Origin: Patescibacteria group bacterium
GTDB taxonomy: Bacteria; Patescibacteriota; Patescibacteriia; 2-12-FULL-60-25
Length of the DNA: 64,000 nt
NCBI GenBank assembly: GCA_041660225.1
Contig: JBAZWV010000001.1
Span: forward strand, 62,558-126,557
Direction of reading: 5' to 3'
Below are positions 49,476 to 58,067 of this stretch, piece by piece. Under the pieces are notes generated by a model. The model ran no database searches. It saw only the letters and a list, made by a program, of their open reading frames with translations, and was not told the origin of the DNA. Both the position numbers and the translations under genes were made by a program. The first letter of the stretch is position 1. Each line of letters starts with the position of its first letter.

Positions 49476-50129
49476 TCACTTAGAACGCGGGTCATGCGAG
49501 TCATCCGCCATCGAAGGTATGGCAGGTTCGGAACGGGTGATACGAATGGTTGTGGAGGACCCAGACCGTTTCATCGGGGAGGGAACACGTGGGGGAACTG
49601 TCTTCGCGACGCGCAGTCGTTGCGCTCGAGCGAGGAGCTCCTCGCTGTCGAAACCGCCCAGCTGTTCCGGAACGATGAGAAAGTCCATCACAGGCTTATC
49701 CGCTTCGTCCGGCGCGGTTTTATCCGCCCGCCAGATTGCGGGAAATGAACGGTAGTCCGTCCAGTAGTATCCGAGGCGACTGAGGACGGTATCGAGACCA
49801 CTTTCCATTTCGCGGGCGAAGACGATCCAGGTCGTGTTCGCGAGCAGCGTCGGCATCTCGGCTTCGATTTTTCGTCGGAGCTTGAGCACCATGGGCGGAA
49901 ACGGAATCGTCTCGAGAAACGCAACGATGATCTCGGGTCGGTCCGCTCGTTCGAGGATGGCATGCTGAGGGATATCCTCGAGGCACGCTTCCGGCGATTC
50001 GTACGGTCCGAGTTGATATTGGTGCTTGAGCTCTCCTCCGCACAACGTTTCGAGTGCGTGCTTGCAAAACACGGGGATCTCTTGCGATGAGGGGGAAAGC
50101 GGGAAAAGAACGATCCGCGGGTTTTGCAT
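49476..50129 (-). CDS. hypothetical protein
   Basis: It is a 217-aa ORF with an ATG start and protein-like composition. I recognise no family. Confidence 0.5.
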   Translation of the reverse strand: MQNPRIVLFPLSPSSQEIPVFCKHALETLCGGELKHQYQLGPYESPEACLEDIPQHAILERADRPEIIVAFLETIPFPPMVLKLRRKIEAEMPTLLANTTWIVFAREMESGLDTVLSRLGYYWTDYRSFPAIWRADKTAPDEADKPVMDFLIVPEQLGGFDSEELLARAQRLRVAKTVPPRVPSPMKRSGSSTTIRITRSEPAIPSMADDSHDPRSK

Positions 50130-50248
50130 GCGTTATCCTTTCTTCTAACAGGCCGATTCAATCATATTCTCGCGATATTTGCAAGGGTCGCCCTGTCCAC
50201 TCGCATGATCTTTTCGTGCGTGATACATTCGTTCGACCATTCTTTTCT

Positions 50249-50830
50249 ATGCGCCGCGAAGTCGTTCTCGATATCGAGACTCAAAATACATTTCAAGACG
50301 TCGGCGCCTATAACGCCGCGCTTCTCGATATCTCGCTCATCGGCTGTTATTTTTATGAAACGGATACATACGAAACATTTTTAGAAGAAGATCTCCCCAA
50401 ACTCTGGCCACGACTCGAACGAGCGGATCGGATCATCGGCTACAATTTGTTCGGGTTCGATTATCCCTGCATGCAGGAATACTATGCGGGTGATTTGATG
50501 AAATTTCCGACGGTGGATTTGTTGCGTGAAATCGAGAAGCGTATCGGCTTCCGCGTGAAGCTCGATGATGTTGCCCAGGCAACCCTCGGGGTAGGGAAGA
50601 GCGGTCACGGACTTCAGGCCGTGGAATTTTGGCGCAAAGGGGAGATTCAGAAGCTCAAAGACTATTGTTTGCAGGACGTAAAAATAACGCGTGATGTTTA
50701 CGAGCATGCCCTCGAAAAACAAAATGTCTGCTTCTTTGACCGGATGGGACAAAAACAAACCGTTCCAATGCCCATTGTCCCGCCCGAACCGGAAGCCAAA
50801 CCAACAATAAACCTCTCCCTCGGTCTGTAG
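50249..50830 (+). CDS. RNase H-like / DEDD 3'-5' exonuclease domain protein (YprB-like)
   Basis: It has VLDIETQ (ExoI), GYNLFGFDYP (ExoII) and YCLQDVKITRDVY (ExoIII with Y-x3-D). The chosen start is ATG at 50249. Confidence 0.75.
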   Translation: MRREVVLDIETQNTFQDVGAYNAALLDISLIGCYFYETDTYETFLEEDLPKLWPRLERADRIIGYNLFGFDYPCMQEYYAGDLMKFPTVDLLREIEKRIGFRVKLDDVAQATLGVGKSGHGLQAVEFWRKGEIQKLKDYCLQDVKITRDVYEHALEKQNVCFFDRMGQKQTVPMPIVPPEPEAKPTINLSLGL

Positions 50831-50881
50831 CTCAAAAAAGTATCCACAGCCTTAAAAATCCAATAAAACCTGATCGCGCGA

Positions 50882-50929
50882 CCACTACATCTTGTGGTAT
50901 AATCCTCTGGCGACCACAAGATATAGTGG
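50882..50929 (+). promoter_or_regulatory. tandem NrdR boxes overlapping an extended -10 promoter of the nrd operon
   Basis: Box 1 is CCACTACATCTTGTGG (50882-50897). Box 2 is CCACAAGATATAGTGG (50914-50929). The boxes are 32 bp apart start to start. TGgTATAAT lies at 50895-50903. The flanks form a 13-bp inverted repeat, atcgcgcgaccac (50873-50885) with gtggtcgcgcgat (50926-50938). Confidence 0.7.
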
Positions 50930-51095
50930 TCGCGCGATTTCCAGGCCCATTTTCAAAAATCCTCTGTTCGGACACCAAAAGATGCCAAATGGAGGCAAAA
51001 AATGAATCCGTCACACGCACCTTGATGAGGAAACTCGTCGGGAGACGGACAAACTGGAACCGTGCGATTCTACAAACCTCAACAAACTCAGCTTT

Positions 51096-52889
51096 ATGAA
51101 AAAGCCGGTTGTTTCGAATTCGAATGTGGCAGAAACCGTCTGGTCGTATGTCACATCGGTCAAAACGATCCGCCGTAGCGACGGCAGAATCGAGGATTTT
51201 GATGCTGCCATTTTGGAAAAATCCGTTCGTGATGCCTTTGTTGCGACAGGACTCAATTCCGAACGCGAACATTCGCGCATCCAGGGCGTTGTTCAAGACA
51301 CCATCCACCGACTGACACAGGCATTTGATGGCCACACCGTTCCCGAAACGCAAGATGTAAAAGAGCTTGTCGGCGCGTCGCTTATAGACGGCGATCTGCT
51401 CGAAGTGGCGAAGTCCTACCTGACGAACGATATGGGACCCAAAAACACCCCCGCCATCCAGCTGCAGAGTGTCCCGACAGCGAAGCCCGCTTCTCGGCCT
51501 GTTATCGCACGCCGACGTCGCTTGTCGGATGAACGTCAATCGATCACGCACAAATTCGAAATCGGATCACACACGGGATACATCACCGTGGGTCTGTACG
51601 AGGATGGAAAGCCGGGAGAAATCTTCGTCACGATGAGCAAGGAGGGGAGCACGCTCGCCGGACTCTTGGACGCGCTCGCAACCTCCGTATCGATCGGTCT
51701 CCAATATGGCGTTCCGCTCAAGACGCTTGTCAGCAAATTTTCACACGTTCGCTTTGAACCGTCTGGTTTCACGCAGAACCCGAACATCCGCGTTGCAAAG
51801 TCGGTGGTTGATTATATTTTCCGCTGGCTCGGAACGAAGTTTCCCGACACGGAACTTGATCTCCATCCGATTGAAGAAACAGAAAGCGAAGCGGCGATCG
51901 ATACGCAGGCGGAGGAACGTCGCAGTCCGATGGTCGGAAGCTGTCCGATGCTTACGCCTCGCAAAGTCTACAAACCATTCGAGTATCCGCAGTACTTCGA
52001 TTATTTCATGAAGCAAAACCAGGCGCACTGGATGCCGACGGAAATTCCGATGGAAAGCGATATCATCGACTACAAGAACAATCTCTCACCGGCAGAAATC
52101 AGCCTCGTCATCAACATCTTGCGTTTCTTTACGCAGGGCGACATCGAAGTCAACAACAACTACAACAGCCGTCTCATTCCGACGTTCCCGAAACCGGAAA
52201 TCAAGATGATGCTGTCGGCGTTCGCGGCCATGGAAAGCACACACGTGTGGGCGTATTCCTACTTGAACGACTCGCTCGGCCTTCCGGAAAAAGAATATTC
52301 TGCATTCCTCGATTACGAATCCATGCGCAAGAAGTACGAGTACATTCAATCGTTTGATGTACGCACGGTTGAGGATCTCGCCGTGAACCTCGCCGTCTTC
52401 GGTGGATTCATGGAGGGTGTCAGTCTCTTTTCATCATTCGCGATTCTGATGAACTTTCCGCGTCTCGGAAAACTGAAAGGACTCGGACAGGTTGTCACAT
52501 GGAGCATCCGCGATGAAACGCTGCACTCCAAGGGCGTCTGTCAGCTCTTCCGCGACCTCGTGAGTGAGAACAAGCACATCTGGACCACCGATCTTCAAGA
52601 AACGCTCTACAGCGCGTGTCGCGACATGGTGAACCTCGAAGATGCGTTCATCGACACCTGTTTCAGCCTCGGGGAAGTTCCAGGACTCAAACCAGACCAG
52701 GTCAAACAATATATTCGCTACATTGCTGATCGTCGTCTGAACGATCTTGGTCTTGATGCGATCTACAACGTTTCAAACCCGCTGGGTTGGCTCGACGTGA
52801 TGGTTAACGCCAAGGAGCACACAAACTTTTTCGAAAATCGCGCGACGGAATACTCCAAAGGTTCTGTGATCGACGATTGGGGCGCCTAA
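51096..52889 (+). CDS. nrdB: ribonucleotide reductase beta subunit (R2) with N-terminal ATP-cone and an inserted NrdJ-C-terminus-like segment
   Basis: The ATP-cone is aa ~20-110 (VKTIRRSDGRIEDFD...). An NrdJ-like block spans aa ~138-246 (RRRRLSDERQSITHKFEIGSHTGYITVGLYEDGKPGEIFVTMSKEGSTLAGLLDALATSVSIGLQYGVPL...RFEPSGFT...DYIFRWLG). The R2 ferritin-like domain spans aa ~288-597, with E-x-x-H twice (ESTHVWAY, RDETLHS) and Tyr at the radical position. Confidence 0.88.
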   Translation: MKKPVVSNSNVAETVWSYVTSVKTIRRSDGRIEDFDAAILEKSVRDAFVATGLNSEREHSRIQGVVQDTIHRLTQAFDGHTVPETQDVKELVGASLIDGDLLEVAKSYLTNDMGPKNTPAIQLQSVPTAKPASRPVIARRRRLSDERQSITHKFEIGSHTGYITVGLYEDGKPGEIFVTMSKEGSTLAGLLDALATSVSIGLQYGVPLKTLVSKFSHVRFEPSGFTQNPNIRVAKSVVDYIFRWLGTKFPDTELDLHPIEETESEAAIDTQAEERRSPMVGSCPMLTPRKVYKPFEYPQYFDYFMKQNQAHWMPTEIPMESDIIDYKNNLSPAEISLVINILRFFTQGDIEVNNNYNSRLIPTFPKPEIKMMLSAFAAMESTHVWAYSYLNDSLGLPEKEYSAFLDYESMRKKYEYIQSFDVRTVEDLAVNLAVFGGFMEGVSLFSSFAILMNFPRLGKLKGLGQVVTWSIRDETLHSKGVCQLFRDLVSENKHIWTTDLQETLYSACRDMVNLEDAFIDTCFSLGEVPGLKPDQVKQYIRYIADRRLNDLGLDAIYNVSNPLGWLDVMVNAKEHTNFFENRATEYSKGSVIDDWGA

Positions 52890-52912: not shown

Positions 52913-54823
52913 ATGTCTTCCGTCTATAAAACCGTCGTTGACGCCCTGTCCGCCAATGACCTCGCCGCCGCGCGTGATCTTCTCCTTGAGGATATTCTGG
53001 TCAAAACAGCCGGCAAAAATAGCTGGGACTGTCCGCATTACACCGCAGACCGTGCCGTGCAGGAATCTATCGACCTCGAAGCCGTGACGCACGCTCCGCT
53101 CTCGTTTTTCGGCCTCGAAAATTTGCGCGACCGTTATTTCATTCGCGATGCGAACGGGGAGATTTGTGAAAGCCCGAAAACATTTTACGCTCGGGTGGCG
53201 ACGGGCATGGCTCGTGGCGACAAGGCGCACGCCCAGGAGCTCTACAACCTGATGGTTCAGCAGTGGTTCGTGCCTGCAACACCGACACTCATGAATATCG
53301 GAACGAGCAAGGGTTTGCCGATCTCGTGCTTCCTCAACACCGTTCCGGACACGCTCGAAGGAATTTTTGATCTCTATCGCGAAAATGCATTCCTCTCGAA
53401 ATACGGTGGAGGCATTGGCACGGACTGGTCGCAATTGCGTGGACAAAACGCACCGCTCAAAGCGAGCGGACTCCGATCCTCCGGCGTCATTCCGTTTCTC
53501 AAAATCATGGACTCGGAAACGATCGCCGTATCGCGCAATTCAACGCGTCGTGGGGCTGCGGCTGCGTATCTTCGTATCGATCATCCGGATATCGAAGAAT
53601 TTCTTGAAATGCGCAAACCGACGGGAGGCGACATGGATCGCAAGTGCCTCAACCTGAACAACGGCGTTACGATCACGGATGAATTTATGAAGGCCGTCGA
53701 AGAGAACCGAACGTATCAGCTTATCGATCCGCATTACAAAACGGTGACCAAGGAACTTTCGGCTGTCGACATGTGGCGCAAACTTCTCAAGATGCGCGCC
53801 GAGACAGGGGAGCCGTACTTCCTCTTTATCGACACCGTGAACCGCGCCATTCCGCCGCACCACAAAGCGAAGGGTCTTACGGTTCGTCAGAGCAATTTGT
53901 GCACCGAAATCGTGCTGCCGACCGACGCCGAACGAACTGCCGTGTGCTGCCTCGGCAGCCTCAACCTCGAGCGCTACGACGAATGGAAGCATCAGATTCC
54001 GGAGATCTCCTATGCGTGCGTCAAAGCGCTCGATAACAACCTCGAAACTTTCATTGAGATGGCGGATCCGGTTGAGTTCAAAAAAGCCATCAATTCGGTC
54101 AAACACGAACGCTCGATCGGTTTCGGCGTGATGGGATACCACGGCTATTTGATGTCGAAAGGCATTCCGTTTGAGAGCCTGCAGGCGCGCCTCGTGAACA
54201 AAGATATCTTCAAACACTTCCATGAGAGCTCCGTTGCGGCGTCAGAACGTCTTGGTCGCGAACGTGGTCTTCCGCTGGACGGAGGAACGCAACGGAACTC
54301 CTATATCAACTCGATCCAACCGACGGCTTCAACGGCCTTTATCTGCGGCGAAGCGACGCCTTCGATCGAACCTTCCGCGGGGAACGCGTATCTCCAAAAG
54401 ACCTTAAGCGGCAGTTTTCTCGTGAAGAACAAATATTTGGAAAAGCTGTTGGATGAAAAGGGGATCAACTCCATGGAAATCTGGAAGAGTGTTATCGCGG
54501 CAAAGGGGAGCGTGCAACACTTGGAGGATCTGACCGAAGATGAAAAGAAAGTATTCCGCACCGCCTACGAAATGAACATGCGCGAAATTGTGCAACAGGC
54601 CGCGGATCGTCAGCCGTTCATCTGTCAGGCGCAGTCACTCAATATTTTCTTCACAACGCCGGTGAGCGGGAAGTATCTCCACGAGGTTCATATGCTCGCA
54701 TGGAAGCTTGGCGTGAAGTCGCTCTACTATCTCCGCTCCAGCGCCCCGATTCATGCGGATTCGATCGATATGAAGTCGCTCAAGCGTGACGTTGCGAACG
54801 AGGAGTGCGCGGTTTGCCAATAA
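52913..54823 (+). CDS. nrdA: class I ribonucleoside-diphosphate reductase alpha subunit (no ATP-cone)
   Basis: It has PATPTLMN, ISCFL, SNLCTEIVLP, CCLGSLNL and a C-terminal YYLRS. There is no VxKRDG-type cone at the N-terminus. Confidence 0.93.
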   Translation: MSSVYKTVVDALSANDLAAARDLLLEDILVKTAGKNSWDCPHYTADRAVQESIDLEAVTHAPLSFFGLENLRDRYFIRDANGEICESPKTFYARVATGMARGDKAHAQELYNLMVQQWFVPATPTLMNIGTSKGLPISCFLNTVPDTLEGIFDLYRENAFLSKYGGGIGTDWSQLRGQNAPLKASGLRSSGVIPFLKIMDSETIAVSRNSTRRGAAAAYLRIDHPDIEEFLEMRKPTGGDMDRKCLNLNNGVTITDEFMKAVEENRTYQLIDPHYKTVTKELSAVDMWRKLLKMRAETGEPYFLFIDTVNRAIPPHHKAKGLTVRQSNLCTEIVLPTDAERTAVCCLGSLNLERYDEWKHQIPEISYACVKALDNNLETFIEMADPVEFKKAINSVKHERSIGFGVMGYHGYLMSKGIPFESLQARLVNKDIFKHFHESSVAASERLGRERGLPLDGGTQRNSYINSIQPTASTAFICGEATPSIEPSAGNAYLQKTLSGSFLVKNKYLEKLLDEKGINSMEIWKSVIAAKGSVQHLEDLTEDEKKVFRTAYEMNMREIVQQAADRQPFICQAQSLNIFFTTPVSGKYLHEVHMLAWKLGVKSLYYLRSSAPIHADSIDMKSLKRDVANEECAVCQ

Positions 54824-56002: not shown

Positions 56003-56647
56003 ATGGGCGTACGTGATCTCGGTGCGGAAATGTTATTTGTCGTCTCAGCGCTTGTCTACGCCATCTTTTGGATATGGGCGATCATTCATGCCCTGCAAAC
56101 GCCACGCGCGACAGATGCGCAGCGCGGGCTCTGGGGGATTGCGATGATCGCGAATCCCATCACCGCCATTTGGTATTGGTACGTTTGGAAACGCTGGGCA
56201 TTTTGGACGCTCTTTACGCCACTCCTCGGCCTCACGTTTTCTTTTCCGTTCATTATCCGCTCCATCATCAGCAAAGCGGACGCAACGGCTCTCACGAACG
56301 CACTTTTCGCCCTTGGGAGCTCGCGACAAGTCGTCCTTATCGCCGCATTGATGATTTTTCCCATGCTGCTCGGGCTTGCTGCCTTGCTCCATCTTGGAAA
56401 AAACACGGAGCTTACGGCCATGGATCGAAATGACTGGATCGTATCGCTTGCGCTGCCGTTCTTCGGCTTTGGAGCGGGTATCGCGTACTGCGCCCGATTC
56501 ATGCGTACCTGGGCCGTTCTGGGGCTTCTGTGGTGGATCGTGATCATTGCGGCACTCAAAGGCATCACGATAAATATCTCCCATGCGCTGATTCCGGCAG
56601 GGGAGGAAAAACGGGAGGAATTTTTACTGCGTATCAAACCGAACTAG
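56003..56647 (+). CDS. membrane protein with PLD-nuclease N-terminal-like (PLDc_N) segment
   Basis: IFWIWAIIHALQTP...ANPITAIWYWYVWKRW resembles PLDc_N. About five TM helices are present. Confidence 0.5.
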   Translation: MGVRDLGAEMLFVVSALVYAIFWIWAIIHALQTPRATDAQRGLWGIAMIANPITAIWYWYVWKRWAFWTLFTPLLGLTFSFPFIIRSIISKADATALTNALFALGSSRQVVLIAALMIFPMLLGLAALLHLGKNTELTAMDRNDWIVSLALPFFGFGAGIAYCARFMRTWAVLGLLWWIVIIAALKGITINISHALIPAGEEKREEFLLRIKPN

Positions 56648-56916: not shown

Positions 56917-57020
56917 AGTATGGATAGATAAATGGGTTTTCCGACGATAGCAAGTCCGTTTTTAGATGGGAATGCGCTCCGTGTGGATAAGCTTCGTAGC
57001 GGATGCTAATCTACCCACCT

Positions 57021-58067
57021 ATGGATTTTTCACCGATTCTTATCATTCTTTTGGTGGTTGTTGTGGCGGGGATTGCGTATCTCGCAATCAAGATGAATCG
57101 TCTGCCTGTCGCGCCCCCGCAGGACACGACATCCATGACACTATTGCAGAACCAGATTGCTCAACTGCAAAAAGAAATGGGGGATCGGATGGGGGAGACG
57201 AACCAGGCGGTCCGTCAGAGTTTTGCGGCGTCAACCGGAATTGTACGTGACGTGACTGAGAGAATTACACGAATGGAAGAGACGAATAAACAGGTGTTGG
57301 ATGTGACGAGCCAATTGCAGAATTTGCAGGACATGCTGAAGAACCCGAAGCAGCGCGGCATTCTCGGTGAATATTATTTGGAAACGCTCCTCAAGAATAT
57401 TTTGCCGCCGGGCGGATATCAAATGCAATACGGATTCAAAGACGGAGAGATCGTTGATGCGGCGGTCTTTATCAAAGATAAGATCGTACCGATTGATTCC
57501 AAGTTCAGTCTTGAAAATTACAATCGCCTTGTCAGTGAGCAGAACGCGACGGAGCGCGATCGCCTCGAAAAATTATTTGTGAGCGATCTCAAGATGCGCG
57601 TGCAGGAAACCGCTAAATACATCCGTCCGCAGGAGGGGACGATGGACTTCGCATTCATGTTCATTCCGCACGAAGCGATCTATTACGATCTTCTGATCAA
57701 CAAAATCGGCGCCGTCCAAGATGATACCGAAAGTATCATTCAGCGTGCGGCAGGGAAGTATCACGTCATCATCGTGTCGCCGACATCGTTCCTCGCCTAT
57801 CTTCAAACGGTACTTCAGGGGTTGCGCGCGCTCCAGATCGAAGAACAGGCGAAGGAAATCCGCAATCGTGTTGTGGATTTGGGACGACATCTCGCGAAAT
57901 ACGAGGAGCATTTTACGAGCGTCGGGAAGAATCTGGGCACGGTTGTGAATCAATATAATCTTGCGTCAAAAGAATTCGTAAAAATCGATAAGGACGTCCT
58001 GCGCATCACCGGGAGCGCGAATGATGTCGAAGCGCTCTCGCTAGATAAACCGTCAACGGACGAATAA
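57021..58067 (+). CDS. rmuC: DNA recombination protein RmuC
   Basis: It has an N-terminal TM helix, a coiled coil, and the RmuC blocks RGILGEYYLE...VDAAVFIKDKIVPIDSKF...DFAFMFIPHEAIYYD...VSPTSFLAYL. Confidence 0.9.
   Translation: MDFSPILIILLVVVVAGIAYLAIKMNRLPVAPPQDTTSMTLLQNQIAQLQKEMGDRMGETNQAVRQSFAASTGIVRDVTERITRMEETNKQVLDVTSQLQNLQDMLKNPKQRGILGEYYLETLLKNILPPGGYQMQYGFKDGEIVDAAVFIKDKIVPIDSKFSLENYNRLVSEQNATERDRLEKLFVSDLKMRVQETAKYIRPQEGTMDFAFMFIPHEAIYYDLLINKIGAVQDDTESIIQRAAGKYHVIIVSPTSFLAYLQTVLQGLRALQIEEQAKEIRNRVVDLGRHLAKYEEHFTSVGKNLGTVVNQYNLASKEFVKIDKDVLRITGSANDVEALSLDKPSTDE

Follow-up and report, generated by a model that had tools for sequence, protein, structure and literature searches.

An ATP-cone and a cysteine-free TSCPD module of NrdJ origin on the class I NrdB subunit of a patescibacterium

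Introduction

How part of a B12-dependent class II ribonucleotide reductase (RNR) came to be joined to the radical-generating subunit of a class I enzyme, and what it does there, is the question raised by a gene of a Patescibacteria group bacterium (assembly GCA_041660225.1). The gene lies at 51096-52889 of a 64,000-nucleotide stretch of contig JBAZWV010000001.1 (positions 62,558 to 126,557, forward strand), here called the window, whose coordinates are used throughout unless a locus (L number) is named. An initial annotation described one uninterrupted open reading frame (ORF) that combines an ATP-cone, a segment resembling the C-terminus of NrdJ and a complete class I R2 domain, and offered two readings of the segment, a domesticated remnant of a deleted nrdJ or an adaptor between the cone and R2. 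Here we describe a genuine fusion whose N-terminal part descends from nrdJ, and we propose that this part acts as a dimerising and regulatory cassette carried by NrdB. Fusions of an ATP-cone to NrdB are already known (NrdBi, F. ignava), and the IscU-like domain, to which the NrdJ-like segment belongs, is known only within class II C-termini. Our literature searches found no paper with an IscU-like/TSCPD domain on or beside a class I subunit, and none that joins TSCPD with ribonucleotide reductase or Patescibacteria with an ATP-cone RNR.

Results

A single ORF joins an ATP-cone, a TSCPD module and R2 in the only RNR of the genome

The ORF at 51096-52889 is unbroken and its product has 597 residues (P0001). 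Scans with Pfam and NCBIfam models detected all three of the parts first read from the letters, at boundaries that agree to within a few codons, and these are listed here with the adjoining nrdA and with values from AlphaFold 2 (AF2) models, given as the predicted local distance difference test (pLDDT), and from codon comparisons, given as the proportion of nonsynonymous differences (pN).

51096..52889, forward strand: fused gene, ATP-cone plus Cys-less TSCPD/IscU-like module plus class I NrdB (domain scans; about 40 clusters alike)
51165..51422, forward strand: ATP-cone, residues 24-109 (Pfam PF03477, 30.6 bits, cut-off 25.8; helical AF2 model, pLDDT 79-90 over residues 20-110)
51432..51503, forward strand: linker 1, residues 113-136, variable and predicted to be disordered (pLDDT <50 over residues 113-147; variable alignment columns)
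51504..51845, forward strand: Cys-free TSCPD/'IscU-like' module, residues 137-250, including a conserved RRRL-x-DER lead-in (Pfam, NCBIfam)
51648..51713, forward strand: helix alpha-1 of the module, residues 185-206, core of the predicted homodimer interface (complex model only)
51846..51947, forward strand: linker 2, the fusion joint, residues 251-284, variable and predicted to be disordered (pN 0.43-0.58; pLDDT <50)
51948..52886, forward strand: class I R2 (NrdB) domain, residues 285-597, with a C-terminal tail of the alpha-binding type (Pfam, NCBIfam, alignments)
52913..54823, forward strand: nrdA, cone-less class I alpha subunit, 636 residues, with a C-terminal CAVC pair (Pfam, NCBIfam, motifs)

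The middle segment matches TSCPD (PF12637) over residues 153-245 with 51 bits (cut-off 22.8), and residues 128-275 align to positions 731-880 of PRK06556, an NrdJ model of 960 positions, with an E of 4e-53, in agreement with its first description as similar to the NrdJ C-terminus. As P0001 has no match to the PF02867 barrel in Pfam and no C-x-x-C zinc (Zn) finger array after the module, it is NrdJ-derived and not an NrdJ. Alignment to the four-Cys copy in L042 places S158, T186, F220 and V237 at the four cysteine positions of canonical TSCPD, and by its sequence the module belongs to the Cys-less TSCPD subgroup found in long NrdJ. The motif of the ATP-cone reads RRSDG, with Ser in place of Arg before DG, a position that is variable in the family alignment.

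The R2 part matches Ribonuc_red_sm (PF00268) over residues 289-562 with 243 bits (cut-off 33.6) and the NrdB equivalog NF007186 over residues 285-595 with 431 bits (cut-off 237). Its metal ligands (D349, E380-x-x-H383, E440 and E474-x-x-H477) and the Tyr387 at the radical position, four residues past H383, are invariant across 39 homologues, which bears out the claim of a complete R2 domain with both E-x-x-H motifs and the radical tyrosine. The ligands align with the ligand columns of 9dws and of the C. trachomatis R2, the type of metal not being readable from sequence. Against the Protein Data Bank (PDB), the R2 domain scored 310 bits with 9dws, the closest solved R2, of which the literature searched makes no mention, and 108 bits with 5olk. 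The adjoining NrdA scored 703 bits on NF006577 and has the catalytic Cys motif SNLCTEI, a YY pair (LYYLR) and a terminal CAVCQ; its nearest PDB relatives are class Id alpha subunits (best match 6dqw, 359 bits). No ATP-cone was found in it by the Pfam scan, as the initial annotation had stated.

The source genome (1.09 Mb in 7 contigs, 100% complete) has one PF02867 locus, one TSCPD and no NrdD, so that NrdAB is its only RNR. By domain and motif content, the product of the fused gene is thus the radical-generating subunit of the sole RNR in this organism, a class I NrdAB with a canonical R2 and a cone-less NrdA.

The fusion recurs in independent assemblies

In a search with the N-terminal 290 residues, matches that share this three-domain architecture made up about 40 clusters, formed at 90% identity, with identities to the query down to 51%. 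They stem from NCBI, JGI, ENA and Logan assemblies and bear the labels Uhrbacteria, Parcubacteria or Patescibacteria; 39 full-length homologues have the same three domains. Three fused homologues were read on separate contigs of 123-951 kb, and a cone-less nrdA is next in each. The same fused ORF in independent assemblies excludes assembly chimerism. An assembly chimera or a missed frameshift, in which case the ORF would really be two or three genes, could draw on the separate genes found in relatives, which are divided at this very joint. Against this stand the unbroken ORF, the fusion common to 39 homologues from all four sources, its verification on the three long contigs, and a module tree on which the fused family is one clade with 94-96% support (SH-like and Shimodaira-Hasegawa-like approximate likelihood-ratio test, SH-aLRT), and we consider the probability of such an artefact negligible. 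That the gene is a real, functional and NrdJ-derived fusion is close to certain.

The N-terminal part is what remains of an nrdJ replaced in place

The nearest relatives of the cone and module outside the fused family are patescibacterial NrdJ proteins of ~1040 residues, built of ATP-cone, core, TSCPD, linker and Zn finger. The cone is 31-46% identical to patescibacterial NrdJ cones, and the module is 75-96% identical within the fused family and 70-79% identical to NrdJ modules. Of 401 genomes of the phylum that were searched for the module, namely 400 sampled ones and the source genome, 75 have it, and outside the source family it lies almost always in frames of NrdJ length (900-1480 residues), with two short exceptions (G099 and G075). 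In one genome of the same family (G117), a 1089-residue nrdJ with cone, core, TSCPD and Zn finger occupies the slot that the fused nrdB and nrdA hold in the window; its neighbours are an RNase_H_2 gene on one side and orf214, rmuC and DUF218 on the other, the same flanks as in the window.

50054..50830, forward strand: RNase_H_2/PolB-exo-like gene, upstream synteny anchor, common to nrdJ and unfused-module loci
57003..58067, forward strand: rmuC, downstream synteny anchor along with ORF 56003-56647 and the DUF218-type ORF after it

The presence of this nrdJ in the same slot argues that nrdB-nrdA took over, at this very locus, from the core and Zn finger of nrdJ and that the cone and the module survived. 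The two ends of an ancestral nrdJ make up the N-terminal ~285 residues: its ATP-cone and the module, which in NrdJ is located after the barrel and before the Zn finger. The suggestion of a domesticated remnant of a deleted nrdJ has therefore held, both because a full nrdJ stands at the syntenic spot in a genome of the same family and because cone and module are each most similar to patescibacterial cone-bearing NrdJ.

On the module tree, the clade of the fused family is nested among patescibacterial NrdJ, and the maximum-likelihood tree groups it with two NrdJ, P0031 and P0045 (97% SH-aLRT), apart from the unfused clade. Despite this separation, one common origin for all modules associated with class I was not rejected (approximately unbiased test, p = 0.33). 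The P0031 NrdJ is not at the syntenic locus.

Several features of the surrounding genes were recorded alongside. The gene that follows the one for P0031, which is the NrdJ nearest to the fused family's cone, encodes a corrinoid adenosyltransferase of the CobA/BtuR type (L033 10090-10650). At one fused-gene locus (L031 1-4400) the upstream genes are conjugation/type IV secretion-like (PrgI, TraC-like, DUF87/TraG P-loop) and take the position that RNase_H_2 usually holds, a context suggestive of an operon able to reside within or close to mobile DNA. The RNase_H_2/PolB-exo-like ORF of the window, 50054-50830, runs to 258 residues from its first GTG; its orthologues are called at 193-209 residues and align over ~193, and its true start is probably ~60 codons downstream.

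Unfused relatives record the joint between module and NrdB

Three further genera of this family carry the NrdJ-derived piece as a gene of its own at the same locus, with a cone-plus-module gene (346 residues) followed by nrdB and nrdA in G138, and a module-only gene (190 and 166 residues) followed by nrdB and nrdA in G095 and G386. A search with the 166-residue protein returned at least 62 module-only and at least 36 cone-plus-module clusters, none of which has a Zn finger. Across six unfused loci, the order RNase_H_2, module gene with or without cone, nrdB was found in seven of the seven places read; six of them go on to nrdA, and the seventh (L025) reaches the contig end at nrdB. Among three looked-up matches of this search, two have rmuC nearby (L024 and L026/L027), and in the looked-up loci the module gene and nrdB either share a 4-nt stop/start overlap or lie 6 nt apart.

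Standalone module proteins end at a motif SLL, which in NrdJ belongs to the linker leading to the Zn finger. The N-terminus of unfused NrdB proteins reads MS-x-LLG-x-CP-x-LT, and linker 2 of the fused proteins runs into SP-x-x-G-x-CP-x-LT, which aligns with that N-terminus. This comparison of the junctions fits a fusion through loss of the stop codon at the overlap, and we conclude, from the aligned sequences, that a separate upstream gene became fused to NrdB by a lost stop codon in this lineage. At two module-only loci (L026 7409-9598 and L027 7409-9233) the nrdA calls are short, at 439 and 503 residues versus ~635, and gaps of 300-870 nt follow nrdB, possibly through a frameshift, an insertion or a degraded nrdA.

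The module is conserved as strongly as R2, and related operons lack it

Between the window and the fused locus L030, the ratio of nonsynonymous to synonymous substitution rates (dN/dS) was lowest for the module (0.030), followed by R2 (0.038) and the cone (0.046); in the same comparison the pN of linker 2 was 0.43, its dN/dS not being computable with dS saturated. Over three comparisons, pN was 0.03-0.13 for the module, 0.04-0.14 for R2, 0.09-0.42 for the cone and 0.43-0.58 for linker 2. The module is under purifying selection as strong as that on the catalytic R2, and the cone, which is lost in many relatives, is less constrained than the module.

The same nrdB-nrdA lineage (74-78% identical) occurs without module or cone in two genomes, G208 and G372, in a different genomic context, which argues that the module is accessory and not catalytic. 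The operon of these two genomes could represent a donor-like state of the class I operon. Neither of their loci (L028 6044-8952 in G208 and L029 5918-9494 in G372) has RNase_H_2 or rmuC neighbours.

The module is predicted to form a symmetric homodimer

Modelled alone by AF2 with an alignment of 34 sequences, the module reached a pLDDT of >90 over residues 148-249 and has the layout beta-beta-beta-alpha-alpha-beta-alpha, the same as canonical TSCPD. Searches of the PDB by sequence, with a single sequence and with a profile, gave no meaningful match and thus no solved structure by sequence, and a Foldseek search of the PDB with the model gave nothing at E <= 0.001. The best match by VIA-align was IscU (1q48; Z 5.9, rmsd 3.4 A over 89 residues), at a level where, with Z <8, the likeness may reflect a mere common arrangement; other IscU/SufU structures scored Z 4.2-4.4 and dimerisation domains of FAD-disulfide reductases Z 4.2-5.4. 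NrdJ TSCPD models from the atlas match the module at TM 0.81-0.84.

Prediction of a complex of two module copies gave a score of 0.64, against 0.00 for the best of three controls. A score of 0.64 was reached by 20 of 30 known same-chain pairs and by 1 of 23 known single chains, counts that apply only roughly, since the module was predicted with our own alignment. The runs agreed in at least 90% of contacts, with a partner pLDDT of at least 86, and the predicted interface is symmetric and made of helix alpha-1 (residues 185-206) with residues 214-222, 236 and 238. Three of the four former Cys positions (T186, F220 and V237) lie in or beside it, and we infer that a metal-bridged dimer of canonical TSCPD became a hydrophobic dimer here. 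On these models, the module probably homodimerises.

An exhaustive search of representatives with the module returned 7541 at E <= 0.001, and the top matches were proteins with two tandem modules: module-only proteins of 250-390 residues, one NrdJ, and at least three SIR2_2 fusion clusters. Such duplications, which recur among module-only proteins, SIR2_2 fusions and some NrdJ, lend independent support to a dimeric working unit. As the module is found without a cone and unfused to NrdB in relatives, and in tandem pairs outside RNR, it is an autonomous unit and not a mere spacer; the initially proposed role as an adaptor between cone and R2 is too narrow. Within the module, H217, R219, F225 and K235 are conserved where it is tethered, in NrdJ or in the fusion, and relaxed where it is free.

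Among the tandem proteins, P0242, P0243, P0244, P0247 and P0255 (250-390 residues) consist solely of two tandem Cys-less modules, up to 64% identical to the copy in the window. A recurrent arrangement, seen in P0047 (L045 6001-7764), P0248, P0251 and P0246, places a tandem pair of Cys-less TSCPD modules after a SIR2_2 domain. In these proteins SIR2_2 is ThsA-like (PADLOC ThsA E 3e-17, LmuA E 1e-16), the modules occupy the position of the ThsA sensor domain, and the proteins may be defence-type effectors that use the module as a sensor.

A putative NrdR-repressed promoter precedes the operon

Upstream of the fused gene, the window has a pair of NrdR-box-like sequences around a promoter element, within a nested palindrome at 50873-50938.

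50882-50897 and 50914-50929, forward strand: two NrdR-box-like 16-mers of the CCAC-N8-GTGG type, 32 bp apart (sequence and repeat scan)
50895-50903, forward strand: extended -10 element TGgTATAAT, reaching from the 3' end of box 1 into the first part of the inter-box gap

Contig 2 (L004 1453-1911, minus strand) encodes a canonical NrdR of 152 residues, composed of a zinc ribbon and an ATP-cone. The region 50882..50929 is likely to be the NrdR-repressed promoter of the operon and, given the pair of boxes around the -10 element and the encoded NrdR, transcriptional control by NrdR is likely, in addition to the proposed control at the protein level. An Rfam scan found no riboswitch in the 5' region, the only matches being chance miRNA-like ones on the NrdR-box palindrome.

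Discussion

The analysis suggests that the NrdJ-derived part of this NrdB is a dimerising and regulatory cassette. The module would be an autonomous dimerising unit, two copies of which, carried on a beta2 dimer, would pair through helix alpha-1. Together with the flexibly tethered ATP-cone it would form a regulatory or oligomerisation cassette inherited from NrdJ and tethered to beta through a flexible linker of ~45 residues. By making the quaternary state of NrdB depend on nucleotides, this cassette could determine the capacity for productive alpha2beta2, so that the control logic of the old enzyme would have been carried over to new catalytic machinery. Catalysis itself would be that of an ordinary class I enzyme and would not need the module. 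Precedents exist on both sides of the fusion. In L. blandensis, where the ATP-cone is on NrdB, dATP switches beta2 to an inactive beta4 (PMC5794259). In the NrdJd of S. nassauensis, the C-terminal 150-220 residues, the 'CRD', which hold the module, are needed for tetramers and hexamers induced by dATP and dGTP, and effector mixing hinted at a third nucleotide site (PMC5704485). For the IscU-like domain, whose function was given as unknown, oligomerisation was proposed by Burnim et al. 2022 (PMC9669993). We place this explanation as a whole, mechanism included, at somewhat better than an even chance; the narrower statement that the role of the module is nucleotide-linked regulation or oligomerisation stands slightly below even.

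A number of observations weigh against this explanation. Nucleotide binding by the module and its effect on activity are steps that we infer, and homodimer formation does not by itself account for the action of standalone module proteins on the reductase. Of the three domains, the ATP-cone shows the lowest conservation (35-85% identity); it is without the canonical Arg right before DG, and its repeated loss in relatives implies that regulation dependent on the cone cannot be the essential part. The fold match to IscU is weak, though in keeping with the term 'IscU-like' used by Burnim et al. Conservation is high throughout the module, with a mean of 0.76 at the predicted interface versus 0.80 for the rest, and the invariant polar residues E146, R147, T151-F154, D170, E175, K182, Q203, N228 and D239-W244 lie off the interface, so that a second surface is probably functional. 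The full-length AF2 model, made with a 39-sequence alignment, is poor (pLDDT 59.5; predicted template modelling score 0.41) and uninformative on domain packing; residues 113-147 and 252-298 are not predicted to fold.

Other explanations are less favoured. The module might dock a third, lineage-conserved partner also used by the old NrdJ, such as a reductant or a maturation factor, with dimerisation incidental and the module retained along with that partner. Most of the module surface is invariant in the NrdJ, unfused and fused contexts despite the different enzyme attached, standalone module proteins must act in trans, and the S. nassauensis NrdJd is not reduced by its own thioredoxins or glutaredoxin, so that CRD-bearing NrdJ may use another donor (PMC5704485). 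However, the Zn finger with its redox Cys pair is lost in every class I-associated form, NrdA has a CxxC tail of its own, the loci read have no conserved third gene with the operon, and in G208 and G372 this nrdBA lineage does without the module; we regard a third partner as unlikely. As another alternative, the module could be a subunit adaptor that binds NrdA or the NrdB core and stabilises the alpha-beta complex, in a role like that of NrdJb toward NrdJa in Pseudomonas. Its fusion to NrdB, or translational coupling as the upstream gene, is a Rosetta-stone pattern; NrdJb of P. aeruginosa, an IscU-like domain with a Zn finger, forms an (NrdJa-NrdJb)2 complex (PMC4520616; PMC9669993); and the conservation of H217, R219, F225 and K235 only when tethered would fit as well. 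Yet an interface with the core should have diverged, given that class II and class I cores are ~23-26% identical and the module is 70-79% identical across NrdJ and NrdB contexts. Tandem module pairs on SIR2 proteins and alone have no RNR attached, and here too the dispensability in G208 and G372 speaks against the idea, which we hold to be less probable still.

The segment could also be an inert relic, a functionless spacer left from the deleted nrdJ. It does derive from a deleted gene, and the same nrdBA lineage does function without it in those two genomes, but the selection data contradict a relic: its dN/dS of 0.03 equals that of R2 while the adjoining linkers evolve almost freely. Moreover, ~140 clusters in three architectures keep the segment, and it is kept even where the cone is lost, which leaves a relic very improbable. 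The dimerising and regulatory cassette is accordingly the explanation that we prefer. A wider version of it, in which the Cys-free module is a second portable allosteric domain of RNR beside the ATP-cone, a self-contained dimerising sensor (possibly of purine dNTPs) placed on class II alpha, on class I beta, on a free subunit or in tandem in ThsA-like SIR2 effectors, is speculative, and we would not expect it to hold in full.

The closest known systems are the ATP-cone::NrdB proteins of the NrdBi type (L. blandensis NrdB, 5OLK; Grx::ATP-cone::NrdB of F. ignava). As in these, a class I beta subunit carries N-terminal non-catalytic additions that include an ATP-cone, the partner NrdA is cone-less and, by analogy, nucleotide-driven oligomerisation of beta would be expected (PMC5794259). 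Unlike them, the present protein has a 115-residue Cys-free TSCPD module between cone and R2, its R2 is nearer to 9dws than to 5olk, and it belongs to the only RNR of its genome, whereas the species with cone-bearing NrdB in that paper all have other RNRs (PMC5794259). The sole PDB match of the cone was that of L. blandensis NrdB, the only solved cone-bearing NrdB in the PDB set searched, and it was not significant (E 0.57). With a cone derived from NrdJ and not detectably related to that of L. blandensis NrdB, the cone was acquired on NrdB independently.

The module itself is of the same sequence family as the IscU-like domain of long class II RNRs (Burnim et al. 2022, PMC9669993; the S. nassauensis NrdJd CRD, Loderer et al. 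2017, PMC5704485) and is flanked by flexible linkers in both contexts, but here it is detached from the barrel, the Zn finger and the redox Cys, and is attached to, or encoded beside, a class I beta subunit. The NrdJa/NrdJb pair of P. aeruginosa (PMC4520616) likewise has the C-terminal region of NrdJ on a polypeptide separate from the barrel and working with it; NrdJb, however, still has the Zn finger and serves a B12 enzyme in dithiol exchange, whereas the genome studied here has no such Zn finger, NrdJa or B12 enzyme. In comparison with canonical TSCPD (PF12637), the module scores above the threshold and has the same layout of secondary structure, but all four family-defining Cys are replaced.

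The IscU-like/TSCPD domain is present in a large share of class II RNRs, with its function unknown (PMC9669993), and the parent 'CRD' has been tied to an unexplained oligomerisation dependent on dATP and dGTP and to an unidentified reductant (PMC5704485). Here the domain is naturally isolated from the B12 barrel and the Zn finger and is kept under strong selection, and its three forms (free, cone-linked and NrdB-fused), together with close nrdBA relatives without the module, make up a ready-made deletion and fusion series for biochemistry. The locus also documents that NrdB gained an ATP-cone a second time and independently. It is a clear example of an essential enzyme swapped in place, from B12-dependent to O2-dependent, with the non-catalytic ends of the old gene kept, and as such it bears on the entry of oxygen-dependent metabolism into bacteria of the candidate phyla radiation.

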